A stretch of 63,289 bases of DNA, the filler included, from Globobulimina sp. (Eukaryota), in NCBI GenBank assembly GCA_003354225.1. It is 49 parts of 49 records of this genome, joined end to end, with 100 filler letters (N's around TTAATTAATTAA, not from the genome) between each part and the next. Parts side by side here need not be neighbours in the genome. Positions count along the whole stretch, not along the records: positions 47,879 to 49,071 come from PIVH01021266.1; 48 more parts are not named here. One strand, given 5' to 3'. Of this stretch, positions 24,594 through 58,289 are shown in pieces (within the stretch, counting starts at the first letter, position 1; every line of letters starts with the position of its first letter). Made by a program: the position numbers and the translations under genes. Under the pieces are notes generated by a model. The model was not told where the DNA came from and ran no database searches. It saw only the letters and a program-made list of their open reading frames with translations.

Positions 24594-24749
24594 TGTTAAT
24601 CGCGGATCTTTTTTCAAATTTTCAAAAGCAAATTGCAAATATGAAATCCAACCAGTATATTGTTTATACTTGAGCATGTAATTTTTTAATGGGATAAGTT
24701 TTGAATTTTTATCAGCAATCACAGTGATAATAGCTAAATCAGTCTTCAT
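24594..24749 (-). CDS. Hypothetical ORF coupled (ATGA overlap) to the packaging ATPase, 3' partial
   Basis: ATG overlaps the ATPase TGA at 24746-24749. Confidence 0.5.
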
Positions 24750-25465
24750 TTTCTATAATTGTAAACTAATCTTTCTTTTTCCCAGGGGAAAAAACCGCAC
24801 CTCAACCGGTGTTTATTGGACCGTATGGATGATGGTGAATTGTCAATCATTAAATAGTCCATCTGTCTGGTCAGAAACACGTGATCGGCCACTGTTGGTA
24901 GAAAACTAGGGTTTCTGTAGAACAAGGATCTCTGCAATGTATCCAACGCGTTTCCATTCAAAATTCCAGGTAGTAAGAATATGTATGCAGTGTTTTTTCT
25001 GATACATCGCATTGAATCCCCTCCTTGCTGTAAATCTTGTACAGTAAGAAAGCACATTGTCCCAGAACCATCGGCTATGTGATGAGCAAACACAGTAAAT
25101 AGTTCTTCAATGCAATTATCTTTCAGACCGACCTTGCTTCCCATATCATCCAATAATACAACTTGACTTTCATCATCTGCCAATGGTCCTAATGAGCTTG
25201 TCAGTTGTTCGAGTGTAGGTGGTTGTTGGAAAAAGGAAATTTCGCAATCTGGAGGTAAGATTTCTTGGCTAATTTCGCGATATATTTTTTGCCATGTATT
25301 ATAAAATATGAGTACTCTTTTTAGTTTTGGTCTGCTTGGACATATGCAAGTGGACCAATTGGCCAAAATATTTTTGACTAGAGTTGATTTTCCACTGAAA
25401 CTTGGACCAAGAACCAAGGCAGAACTAGGGAATGAGAGGTAATAATTATTTATTGGTTCGTACAT
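24746..25465 (-). CDS. Polinton/Maverick (adintovirus-like) A32/FtsK-family packaging ATPase
   Basis: Walker A GPSFSGKS, Walker B VVLLDD, LFTVFAHH, LTVQ, IRKNTAYIFL, YLMID; 239 aa, intronless. Confidence 0.85.
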   Translation of the reverse strand: MYEPINNYYLSFPSSALVLGPSFSGKSTLVKNILANWSTCICPSRPKLKRVLIFYNTWQKIYREISQEILPPDCEISFFQQPPTLEQLTSSLGPLADDESQVVLLDDMGSKVGLKDNCIEELFTVFAHHIADGSGTMCFLTVQDLQQGGDSMRCIRKNTAYIFLLPGILNGNALDTLQRSLFYRNPSFLPTVADHVFLTRQMDYLMIDNSPSSIRSNKHRLRCGFFPWEKERLVYNYRK

Positions 25466-27181: not shown

Positions 27182-28375
27182 GCATTGTCAAGAACAGAAT
27201 CATTAAGAATCAAGGCTTGGACCGGCGGCGATTTTGGCAGAAAAGATATCAAAACCGCAATCTCAAAGTGTTGTGTGATATAAATAACGAAGCAGACCGC
27301 TGTAACTCCATTGCGAAAACCTGTTGGGTCAAAACTGTGCAAAAACTTCACATTCACCTACCATGGCCTTCATGTCGCATGGAAGGTGTTGCCGATTGGA
27401 CTGGCACGCTCTCTGAGAATGAGATCTTCTTAAAAATCGAAGTGCCGCCCACTGTGCGCCTATGGTGCAAGAAGTGCAATACCGGCTTGCTGGAAGCTAC
27501 ACAGTCGCGGTGTTCCAATCGGCGTTGCGAGGGAGTACGCCCACAATATCTCGTCTACGAAGGCAAATGCGGCTTATTGAAGAACCCCTGCCTTCATCCC
27601 CGAGGTTATAAGCTATTCACCGCCGTCAATAGCGAGTTATTAAACAATTTATGTGACGGTGAATGCTTATTATTTTCGACGCAAACCAGCTGTACAACGT
27701 CGCCCGTCTTTGCGATGAGTGGCGCTGATTTGGATGGCGATGATTTTCTGGTGGTGACACAAAAGGATTTACTGCCAAACAGTGACTATGATATGGAGTA
27801 TAAATATGGTATTAAAGTGCAGAAGTTTGACGAACAGGGTCAGCTATCTTTGCCTGAATACATCGATGATTATACGATCGTGGATTACTTTTTAGAGTAT
27901 GCGTTGCATGAAAACACTGCAGAATTATCGCAGTTGCATGAGGCGTACAGCGAGCATAATGTGGAGGGGATTGGACATAGGGATTGTTTGGAGATTGCCA
28001 AATACCATTCCTTTGCATTGGATTTCCCCAAAACGGGCAAAGCTGCCATATTTCCAAAGGATAATGGCATTCCGATGAATAATGACATCAATAAATATGG
28101 ACATTGCATCTATCCGCATTATATGAGCAAAAAACCGGAGAAAATGAAGTTTCATTCCACGATGATCAAAGGCAGAATGTATGATTTTATACTGGATAAA
28201 TTGCCGCATGATCTGGCGCGGGATCGTAAGTTTAGAAAAGAAGCGGGTTTGATCGACTATCCTCCAAACCTGCCGCCACGCCCATTTTTGAGGGAGGCTC
28301 CAGAGGAAAATAATAAATTTGGATATAATCAGCAGAATCATAATGGCAAATATCAAGCACATCGCAATCAGATTA
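27182..28375 (+). CDS. Cellular (RNAi-type) RNA-dependent RNA polymerase, catalytic region, partial
   Basis: MEGVADWTGTL..NEIF, KNPCLHP, MSGADLDGDDFLV (DxDGD), HSFALDFPKTG, YPHYM, GRMYD. Confidence 0.95.
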
Positions 28376-47718: not shown

Positions 47719-48189
47719 GATTTGATGCTTGATAGAATTCTTTATTTAAGCAGAGTTTTTTTACCTAATTTGTACTCCNNNNNNNNNNNNNNNNNNNNNN
47801 NNNNNNNNNNNNNNNNNNNNNNTTAATTAATTAANNNNNNNNNNNNNNNNNNNNNNNNNNNNNNNNNNNNNNNNNNNNTTATATCATTACAATATACCTT
47901 TAACAATAAATTATTTGTTCTTGCAAAACATTTAGTAAAGTTTCAATCTCTATAAACTCTTTCACTAATACATTGCCACCCATACACATCAGTCAATTTT
48001 TATGATTAATCAAAGAACAGACACTCTTAAAACGAAGCAAAACCTCAAAACAACAAAGTGCAATACAACATAAATAAGTATGAATCATAAGTTTACATTA
48101 GGAACCGACCAATAACACAAAAGTAAACAATGAATCATACACAAAAGTCGAAAACAATGCAAAGTCAGAAATCTTCACCAAAAGTCAAT

Positions 48190-48765
48190 TCAACATTCAT
48201 ATGAGTCTTTGTCATATCCGTATGGAGTGAAACATCTTTCGTCCTCACAATCACCACCTTCCGAATCAACTTCATCATCTTCGCCATCGCTCACCACCAT
48301 TTCCAAGCACCCTTCCATTCCGCCACACACACTTTCGATGAAATGGGACAATTTGGCTTCGAGATATGTGGCCAACCAATCGCAAACCTTCAACACCTCT
48401 TCTTGATCATCATGAACTTGCACAGCCAAATGACCGGCCACACAGAACAAACACAGTACAAATTCGGCCTCGATCTTTTCTCCGGAAAACAGCACTCTGT
48501 CGCAAGCGACCATAAAATGATGAAAATCGGTCTTAAAATCGATGTCGATTTCGTTCACAGCAGTTTCGATCAAAGTTTCGTACACTCTATCGCAATAGTA
48601 ATAAGCCTTGTTGCACAACAAGGAAACGACACTGCCCAATTCAGGTGTCAAAGGACCGGGCAATCCGTTCGCACAATCATTCATATCCATGTCCCATTCC
48701 CGTTTCAAACGATATTTAACGTAGGCGAAGGACAGATCCTTCCAGTATTCACCTGGTTCGGCCAT
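48190..48765 (-). CDS. Divergent Bcl-2-family-like protein
   Basis: BH4-like [10 protein letters not shown], BH3-position helix, BH1-like [25 protein letters not shown], BH2-like [23 protein letters not shown], in the correct order and spacing. Confidence 0.7.
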   Translation of the reverse strand: [191 protein letters not shown]

Positions 48766-49171
48766 TATCGCAACTCACAACCAGAAGATTAAATTACAAC
48801 ACACCAACCAGTCATCGACAAAAAACAATTAGAACCTAGACCACCAACCACCTGTTGCACATCAATCAAATTTGACAGCTCACTCGACAGGATTCAAGTA
48901 AATAGTATGACTCATCATCATAGCCTTCACTAAATTTTAAAAATTTAAAACAAACTCCATTGCGTACGCTTCTGTCTGGTTAAAACTGAGCGTCTAATAC
49001 ATATAATAATAGTAACTGAATTACTAATATCTCTTTTATCTACTTTATCTATTAATTCATACATATACTGANNNNNNNNNNNNNNNNNNNNNNNNNNNNN
49101 NNNNNNNNNNNNNNNTTAATTAATTAANNNNNNNNNNNNNNNNNNNNNNNNNNNNNNNNNNNNNNNNNNNN

Positions 49172-56929: not shown

Positions 56930-57778
56930 TTTATCTTTTATTATTGCAGTACCATTAACATCACAATCACTTTTACATCCTGTCATACCATCTAACCATT
57001 CCATTCTACTGTACGTATCTCCCCAATATGACATAATTAAAGTCATTCCAAAATCCAATGCTTGATTCATTTCCTGTACATATCCATTATTATTACATGC
57101 ATCAAATTCAAATGTATTATTATTTTGAGTTAATGTGACATGAATTGTTGAACCAAAATGTACAGATTCTCTAAATGGTTTCATTGTATTTATTTTACAA
57201 TTTGCAATTGAATCTGGATCTGGACACATTCCTTTACTGTCAACTTTATATGAATTTGTGCTGCATCCAGGACCATCACAGCTTGTAATATATCCGCCTG
57301 GTGCTTGTGAACAAGTATGTGGTGCAATTTGTAATGCATATTTATTTGCTTCCATTGTATCTAATTCCCAGCAATAATCTGCTCCATCATTTGCACCACA
57401 TTCATAACTACAACCACCACCAGGATTTGGTAAATTACTTGAATTATATCCTGGCATTGTTACAAAATAAAATGCCGCATTACATGAACAACTAATACTA
57501 CTTAAATTTGCTGTAAATGAAAGTGTCTTATTTGATAATTTATATTCCATGAACATATCAGGAGTATATGTATTTGCACCAGTTTTAGCAATTTGAATAT
57601 TTGTATTATGTTTAAGGGTAATTGTTGTACCATTTACTTCAATTCCATTTGGAGATACTGATAGTACATATCGTGTAACATATTCTCCATCTTCTTTTAT
57701 CATAATTGGTCCCACCAGTTCACTGTAAACACCATACACTGCATAAAGAGTTAATAATAAGGCTCTCATCATTGACAT
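56930..57778 (-). CDS. Secreted glycoside hydrolase family 7 (compact, endoglucanase-like)
   Basis: L.NKTLSFT.NLS.ISCSCNAAFYFVTMP, CWELDTMEAN (ExDxxE), PHTC, CDGPGC..N, INTMKPF, GMTLIMSYW, MEWLD. Confidence 0.9.
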
Positions 57779-58289
57779 TGTTGACTCGAGTTTTCCCTAA
57801 ACTACAACCTTTAAACATATCTTATTTATTCTTGTTAAACCAAAATGAATAAAAGCATAAAAATAAACATATCTTAACGCAGCGGTCGCAGCCATTAAGT
57901 CATTATCACATTATGTTTGATGTTTGTTGATTTACAAGCTGAAAAACTGAAATCACTTCAAATCAAGTAGCAACAGCATGTCGCAATGAGCCATTTTGCT
58001 CAAATGCCCTATAACAATGTGAATCCATAGAACAGAACCAATCATTTCCAACAAAACCCAATCACTTTTACCCGCCAAATCCATCGGCCTTTCCAGTTAA
58101 TCCCTTGTCCGTTTTTTGAAANNNNNNNNNNNNNNNNNNNNNNNNNNNNNNNNNNNNNNNNNNNNTTAATTAATTAANNNNNNNNNNNNNNNNNNNNNNN
58201 NNNNNNNNNNNNNNNNNNNNNCGTTTAACGTTTCTCTTTCGGAAATCTGTGATAAATTTGTACTTAATCCCGAATTGTTGTTGTCATTT

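Follow-up and report, generated by a model that had tools for sequence, protein, structure and literature searches.

The reading frame on the minus strand at positions 48190-48765 of the window encodes P0001, a protein of 191 amino acid residues. It is a real gene with a real Bcl-2 fold and derives from the animal Bcl-xL/Bcl-2 branch. The gene belongs to a family of about 40 members in the assembly, a point that the original prediction had missed. P0001 is probably an accessory viral Bcl-2 (vBcl-2) of Maverick/Polinton elements of the adintovirus type, carried by a co-sampled small animal. New here are the stepwise erosion of the BH1 motif and a strictly conserved 12-residue C-terminal peptide in place of the membrane anchor.

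The reading frame and its contig

The window, which is the whole stretch of 63,289 nucleotides that was analysed, consists of 49 unrelated contigs of 1,192-1,195 bp each, separated by N spacers, from an assembly of 70.2 Mb and 48,370 contigs. Since unrelated contigs are joined, the neighbouring genes of the window have no linkage to the 191-residue frame. The other contigs include a synapsin ATP-binding domain (219-950), an RNAi-type RdRP (27184-28374) and a GH7 glycoside hydrolase (56930-57796). P0001 lies on the contig G000:C21266 (L001 in our numbering), which spans positions 47879-49071 and has 1,193 bp, a GC content of 0.375 and N spacers at both ends. No second intact gene was identified on the 1,193 bp. 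An antisense frame of 149 amino acids at 48343-48792 was taken as a putative shadow of the Bcl-2 frame.

The P0001 frame runs from ATG to TGA. The copies L003, L005 and L007 and the ENA relative P0002 begin at the same methionine, and P0001 is therefore complete. At the BH2 codon where other family members have a GT splice donor, P0001 reads ATG^GAA, which makes the gene intronless. The original prediction of a complete, intronless frame of 191 residues was correct, including its position.

Upstream of P0001, positions 48890-49010 on the plus strand hold the 5' leader of another Bcl-2 gene, which is oriented head-to-head with P0001 and belongs to the L021/L025 type, whose genes are spliced and TM-anchored. 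Directly after it, also on the plus strand, follows a match to the 3' flank of the same partner gene (49013-49071; L025 356-294, L059 574-633). Because the leader is followed directly by the 3' flank, the partner has been deleted in this copy, and in L008 the partner Bcl-2 is internally deleted. The upstream neighbour varies in the group: L005 and L007 have a tRNA-Leu at this place, L001 and L008 a broken partner Bcl-2. The tRNA-Leu genes (CAA, TAA) map to L005 22-108 and L007 305-389, and a tRNA-Thr was seen on an element contig (L033 836-911). Beyond the broken partner, L008 carries tandem 138-bp repeats with GC-rich cores (111-484) that were not found elsewhere in the assembly. At the other end of the P0001 contig, a 43-bp motif (47884-47926) is common to L061 and L062 at 93%. 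The L062 frame is related to the gene upstream of the clade member P0004, and its direct comparison with L026 was not significant. The frames of L059 and L061 were tried as element-family genes and rejected, as they had no match to element families.

P0001 has the fold of Bcl-xL

The Pfam Bcl-2 profile (PF00452) matched P0001 at residues 60-145 with E=2.9e-6 and 28.2 bits, where the gathering cut-off is 31.4. The similarity is beyond chance, but the single sequence stays under the gathering score. For the relatives P0002 and P0003, a precomputed PF00452 match exists. When P0001 was searched as a single sequence against the PDB, nothing significant was found (best E=0.13), and nearly all matches belonged to the Bcl-xL/Bcl-2 family. 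A profile built from six clade members matched Bcl-xL at positions 2-156 with E=1.5e-15.

The AlphaFold2 model of P0001, computed from a 34-row alignment, had a pLDDT of 80.9 and a pTM of 0.77 and showed eight helices and a disordered tail. The helical Bcl-2 domain comprises residues 4-161 (48283-48756, minus strand). Foldseek against the pdb set ranked Bcl-xL first (E=4.9e-5, TM 0.84 by target), with Bcl-2 folds only among the matches listed. In VIA-align, Bcl-xL reached Z 17.5 with an rmsd of 2.5 over 141 aligned positions (residues 4-159); the top 37 rows were Bcl-2 folds and the next row had Z 5.3. BAK and BOK scored below Bcl-xL (Z 14.3 and 14.7), and the Atlas placed the E1B-19K/Bcl-2 cluster first (0.93). 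The original prediction had called the frame Bcl-2-like from an alignment by eye; the six-member profile, the model, Foldseek and VIA-align bear this out, with Bcl-xL as the top structural match.

P0001 shares the eight-helix fold with the cellular proteins Bcl-xL, Bcl-2 and Bcl-w (PDB 4qnq, 2o2m, 2m04; Trichuris 6v4m; Trichoplax 6yld; Hydra 6wgz), from which it differs by an identity of only about 18% and by the loss of NWGR, the BH3 GD, the BH2 Trp pair, the BH2 intron and the TM helix. Set against the Bax/Bak/Bok class, it has neither the BH3 GD nor the TM helix, and the listed profile matches are Bcl-xL/Bcl-2. Like P0001, the viral proteins BALF1 of EBV, B14, A52, A46 and F1L of poxviruses and E1B-19K of adenoviruses keep the fold while their BH motifs erode. 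The best BFVD matches were BALF1 and other herpesviral vBcl-2 proteins (E=0.013-0.06). In VIA-align, viral folds were further from P0001 than Bcl-xL (B14 Z 9.1, A52 7.6, F1L 7.4, A46 7.3). P0001 is therefore an independent derivation, and its viral likeness is a functional analogy only.

BH1 erodes stepwise and a conserved peptide replaces the anchor

The BH3-equivalent helix 2 (residues 50-60, 48586-48618, minus strand) reads LCNKAYYYC in the alignment and has no GD; Leu50-Cys51 is invariant in the 6-row clade alignment. At the BH1 NWGR position, residues 99-102 are EAEF (48460-48471, minus strand). In the BH2-equivalent (residues 142-150, 48316-48342, minus strand), both tryptophans are replaced, the first by Phe, so that F..GGM stands for W..GGW, and the intron of the conserved site is absent. 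The changes from NWGR to EAEF and from GGW to GGM and the loss of the BH3 GD had all been predicted, and the clade alignment confirmed them. NWGR is absent in all six lineages of the P0001 clade, with neither Trp nor Arg at the site, and in five of the six the position of the BH1 Gly is acidic. Along the tree, BH1 goes from NWGR in L011/L014 through acidic-W-x-K in most of the sister clade to a site without W and R in the P0001 clade.

Where cellular Bcl-2 has its anchor, P0001 has an acidic, disordered linker that varies among the copies (residues 160-179, 48229-48288, minus strand) and a conserved terminal peptide of 12 residues (48190-48228 with the stop codon, minus strand). From residue 151 on, the best 19-residue Kyte-Doolittle mean is -0.53, in agreement with the predicted acidic tail in place of the TM helix, and the pLDDT of the model falls below 50 at residues 161-186. 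P0001, P0002 and L004 end in the same 12 residues. For the two of them with DNA, L001 (P0001) and L004, the codons of this peptide show six synonymous differences and no replacement; the terminal tail is missing in L002 and L006. A search of the terminal region against PDB sequences gave no match (best E=2.1). A DEVD word in the linker (residues 164-167) occurs in the P0001 copy only and was ruled out as a conserved feature, since the other copies do not keep it. FFAT, LIR and PDZ readings of the tail were considered and not adopted. In sibling genes (L018, L019, L016, L036, L039, L032 and P0004), CaaX-like C-terminal words replace the TM helix, so the family has replaced the anchor in at least two ways.

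The dN/dS values of P0001 against its paralogues were 0.15, 0.39, 0.39, 0.44 and 0.62, and 1.75 for one pair of 46 codons; six control pairs of sister clades gave 0.13-0.30. Constraint on the P0001 clade is present but relaxed. The term degenerate, which the original prediction had offered for a paralogue from animal DNA, is not right for P0001, as dN/dS is below 1 in five of six pairs and the terminal peptide is invariant.

A family of Bcl-2 genes with an animal intron site

A Pfam Bcl-2 search of the assembly gave 37 matches, 32 of them above the cut-off, and tblastn added four contigs to make 41 Bcl-2-like contigs. Eight of these form the P0001 group, with 60-100% identity over the matched parts. 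In run X1, 72 contigs aligned to the stretch (15 at >=99%, 39 at 95-99%, 13 at 90-95% and 5 lower), and the coding part had a greater summed depth than the 3' flank, in keeping with many variants. No contig from runs X2 and X3, which come from the same sample, matched the stretch, but this does not prove absence. The closest relatives from outside the assembly were P0002 (62-66%), P0003 (35%) and P0004 (27%), all on short contigs; the five nearest relatives of P0001 are singletons. An exact look-up of ten of our Bcl-2 proteins in a 15-billion collection found none present. Searches of IMG/VR with P0001, A2, A4 or the element integrase, and of GTDB genomes with A4 or A2, returned no relatives.

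A tree of 40 rows, from which the shortest fragments and part of the near-duplicates had been omitted, was computed from 29 of our loci, P0001 and 10 database proteins. The P0001 clade has seven rows and a support of 100/99. Its sister comprises L033, L010, L012, L013, L037 and P0005, joined at 92/85, which is below the starred level. Both lie within a group of 21 rows (94/89) that also holds the integrase-linked L032 and L018/L039 and the NWGR-bearing L011/L014. The phylogeny that had been proposed as a check places P0001 beside an element-borne clade. It includes only four animal-type references, three coral-type proteins and one Aplysia protein, and therefore cannot assign the family to one animal lineage.

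Many sibling Bcl-2 proteins retain NWGR and TM helices. A GT donor after the BH2 Trp is found in five of our contigs, and two of these have introns of 54 and 111 nt and a TM exon. Where the partner gene is intact (L021/L043, L025), it encodes NWGR, is interrupted by an intron of 111 or 54 nt directly behind the BH2 Trp, and has the TM exon; downstream of the GT donors of L014 and L017, such an exon was not found. In coral genes the break falls at the same BH2 codon (P0009 compared with the spliced P0027), and conservation of the BH2 exon boundary in animals is described in the available text of PMC8998228. The shared intron site in our contigs, in coral and in the literature indicates that the family descends from animal genomic DNA.

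Linkage to Maverick-type elements

Counting an rve integrase, a C5 protease, a double-jelly-roll (DJR) capsid or a pPolB as core genes, we verified such genes on six of the 41 Bcl-2 contigs (L018, L032, L033, L034, L037 and L039). Three further contigs share a frame that was called minor-capsid-like by eye only, and ten more share accessory frames with element contigs. The remaining 22 have neither core nor shared frames and include all eight of the P0001 group, which are at most 1.2 kb long and too short to show a core gene. All ten Bcl-2 contigs of 2 kb or more carry core, minor-capsid-like or shared accessory frames. In addition to integrase, protease, capsid and pPolB, the longer contigs bear dNK, dUTPase, NADAR and a divergent histone H3. 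The assembly as a whole has 34 pPolB and 13 capsid-like matches. On L090, an independent metagenome contig, P0004 adjoins a homologue of the membrane ORF of the capsid-bearing L034 (E=2.2e-5 among 1,460 ORFs). The P0001 clade shares an element neighbour by way of P0004, and P0001 itself nests near element-borne genes in the tree.

Further element-type observations were made. A P-loop ATPase on the minus strand of the window (24749-25465) resembles the Maverick packaging ATPase (AAA_22, E=0.0064) and has an element-like composition. The divergent H3 occurs on the element-type contigs L037 (556-900), L104, L107, L108, L109, L110 and L113, in some cases beside NADAR, and the H3 gene of L037 holds an intron of 48 nt. 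On L094 (G000:C2449), pPolB lies in short frames and is apparently split by introns; its composition score (see below) is +28, on the element side. A BTB-like reading of L137 was not confirmed by Pfam.

A capsid homologue search gave no matches, and Atlas features indicate a double jelly roll. On the sibling contigs, Pfam found neither an OTU-like domain on PolB nor a chromodomain on the integrase, and no element end in the form of a terminal inverted repeat was identified on these short contigs. The strict adintovirus definition, as given in the accessible portion of Buck et al. (PMC11071296), includes the OTU-like PolB domain, the integrase chromodomain and a hexon recognisable by BLASTp; in the main text as available, 'Bcl' occurs 0 times.

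Bcl2 homologues in adintoviruses have already been published (Starrett et al. 2021, PMC8502044). In the portion of that paper available, Bcl2 is treated in one sentence and in map labels, and a multi-lineage expansion, motif erosion and anchor replacement do not appear. A BCL2-like motif is noted in planarian Burro elements in the accessible part of PMC6431247. Our literature searches, which covered few subscription papers, found nothing on the P0001 clade or on foraminiferal Bcl-2, and no paper on P0001-type genes under adintovirus, Polinton or Maverick cargo. In adintoviruses, Bcl2 accompanies integrase, capsid, protease and pPolB as an accessory gene, and the same was seen for sibling genes in this assembly; the P0001 clade differs in having no directly linked core gene.

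Alternatively, P0001 could belong to a cellular Bcl-2 array of the co-sampled small animal, a fast-evolving cluster head-to-head with a spliced, anchored Bcl-2, multiplied by Helitron-like or tandem duplication, sharing ancestry with the element genes and now lying outside elements. The absence of a core gene from all eight clade contigs, the cellular exon structure of the partner gene and the Helitron-like repeat and host-type LINE and NACHT contigs that adjoin the cassette are in its favour, as are the BH1-remodelled paralogues that animals possess, Trichoplax Bcl-2L4 and mouse Boo, according to the available text of PMC8998228. However, the sister clade is element-borne, the neighbour of P0004 is an element accessory gene, short introns also occur in element genes such as the H3 of L037, and the exchange of upstream genes and the divergent tRNA-Leu neighbours are in keeping with the variable region of a virus. 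We regard the cellular array as unlikely, though as the strongest competitor of an element-borne P0001.

The genome of origin

A fragment of SSU and histones in the assembly are of a type that we take, by eye, to be foraminiferal, and bacterial, phage and ciliate-like pieces are also present. The original description of the assembly as protist-dominated agrees with this. Mitochondrial COI on L048 (G000:C24873), with TGA read as Trp and, by eye, a long ciliate-type insert, indicates a further protist. The COX1 profile also gave at least nine matches (L047, L049-L055) to a heme-copper protein that is by eye qNor-like (nitric oxide reductase-like), several copies having frameshifts and AT-rich flanks. 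Chimeric contigs were seen as well: L035 3934-4763, where element DNA is joined to bacterial rpoN/HPF; L025 at about 732-897, where Bcl-2 is by eye joined to a SufB-like frame; and L056 847-1009, with an SSU scrap inside a glycosidase-like gene. Any single linkage in this assembly is weakened by such contigs.

The partner gene is followed by a repeat that begins sharply with TC; in six of the eight copies in which this end is present, an A precedes the TC. From this 5' boundary and the general rules for Helitron ends we presume that the repeat is Helitron-like; a Helitron 3' end was not found. Members of the same repeat family were seen on contigs poor in genes and next to LINE RT, Penelope-like and NACHT frames.

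An order-3 composition score was trained on 31 foraminifer-type and 17 element contigs, with the labels set by eye. In leave-one-out tests it separated all 31 from all 17. On its non-foraminifer side lay seven of eight clade contigs, 18 of 19 repeat-linked contigs and four of six intron-type contigs; the non-ORF parts of foraminifer-type contigs were at or below 0 in 18 of 18 cases. The P0001 contig scored only +4 and its 3' flank -9, and the intron-type contigs L011 and L014 scored on the foraminifer side. A positive score means unlike the foraminifer set and not animal, as bacterial and phage contigs are positive too. The k-mer part of the binning that had been proposed as a check sets most clade contigs apart from the foraminifer set, but does not show an animal source. 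CpG o/e was tried as a group separator and gave no useful separation.

Animal markers were searched for in the assembly. No animal COX1 was among the 10 COX1 matches (one ciliate-like COI, the rest qNor-like). Of 90 histone matches, the 23 with the highest scores were read, and a canonical animal H3 was not among them. No animal SSU was found, the sole exact SSU pattern match being foraminifer-type. A zf-C4 search for nuclear receptors, run with no positive control, gave 0 matches. These blanks are weak because the foraminiferal rRNA and organelle contigs also appear largely missing, the foraminiferal SSU itself being present only as a chimeric scrap, and because the searches set lower bounds only.

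The lack of an animal COX1, H3, nuclear receptor and SSU beside some 40 Bcl-2 and 34 pPolB matches could also mean that the host is a foraminifer or another non-animal eukaryote with integrated Mavericks and a radiation of about 40 Bcl-2 members of animal origin. The short introns of 48-111 nt and the scores of L011 and L014 are compatible with it, and a host that lacks BH3 proteins would be in keeping with the lost BH3-binding motifs. Against it, the repeat-linked and element contigs are unlike both the coding and the non-coding DNA of foraminifer type, the linked NACHT has animal NLRs as its best PDB matches, though weakly (E=5e-4), siblings with NWGR and TM helices suit a host that has mitochondrial apoptosis, and the marker blanks carry little weight. 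The searches reported in PMC8998228, in the text available, found no Bcl-2 outside animals and viruses. We consider a non-animal host distinctly improbable. Very improbable are free virions or detrital viral DNA from the sediment, amplified with the sample in the absence of a host genome and with flank links as amplification chimeras: element genes over-represented against host markers, the chimera L035, the swarm of variants in run X1 and relatives on short metagenome contigs would agree with this, but residence in a chromosome is indicated by the broken copies, by the deletion of partners and by a repeat inserted with an exact boundary that recurs.

For an element-borne P0001, which would lie in the variable region of the elements, the host is most likely a second eukaryote, a small marine animal with short introns, whose genome would hold many copies of these elements. 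We infer this host and the membership of P0001 in its elements, since an animal marker was not found and the P0001-clade copies have no core gene. The short introns and the Atlas capsid cluster, whose commonest phylum is Nematoda, suggest a nematode, as a lead only. The original prediction had left open a viral or endogenous-virus gene, a paralogue from co-sampled animal DNA and a non-metazoan Bcl-2 fold. The first two are both favoured and probably coincide in an element-borne gene within an animal genome. The third is least supported because of the Bcl-xL/Bcl-2 ancestry, the animal BH2 intron in the relatives and the non-foraminifer composition of linked contigs.

Proposed origin and function

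The elements would have captured a spliced, membrane-anchored animal Bcl-2, which then multiplied within them. In several lineages both the intron and the TM exon may have disappeared during the stepwise decay of BH1. The product would be a soluble protein of Bcl-2 fold in which the Gly/Arg clamp that holds the BH3 Asp is gone and the Gly position is acidic.

As judged from its motifs, such a protein would somewhat more probably than not be a non-canonical decoy or scaffold, acting on host death or innate signalling or on the canonical vBcl-2 of the element, with the terminal peptide as a docking or targeting signal. BALF1 and the poxviral A46, A52 and B14 would be functional parallels for such a non-canonical Bcl-2 fold. 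A possible but less probable role would be that of a Bax/Bak inhibitor with altered BH3 selectivity, and it is doubtful that the gene is a copy losing its function. In the available text of PMC8998228, loss of the BH1 Gly is linked to an unlikely functional groove or to changed selectivity. The BH1 Gly is lost there in Trichoplax Bcl-2L4 and mouse Boo/Diva as in P0001; these proteins change one residue, whereas P0001 changes the whole BH1 motif, BH2 and the anchor. PMC11209288 reports BALF1 to be pro-survival and also to inhibit BHRF1. By analogy, the closest functional counterpart of a remodelled gene that accompanies a canonical one would be BALF1.

The Bcl-2 matches in this assembly are not evidence for protist apoptosis genes. 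If a protist host were true, a Bcl-2 family would for the first time be seen at work beyond animals and the viruses of animals, and the animal-only range would be broken; in the cell of such a host, which has no BH3 network, the fold would have been put to another use, with a novel peptide ligand at the C-terminus. The terminal 12-residue peptide is a candidate bait for pull-down. On the probable reading, one assembly gives a natural series that starts with a spliced, anchored NWGR Bcl-2, passes to the xWxK forms of the elements and leads to a soluble form that has no motifs but a new, invariant terminal peptide. This series parallels the poxviral use of the fold, and it occurs in a group of viruses for which Bcl-2 genes are hardly described.
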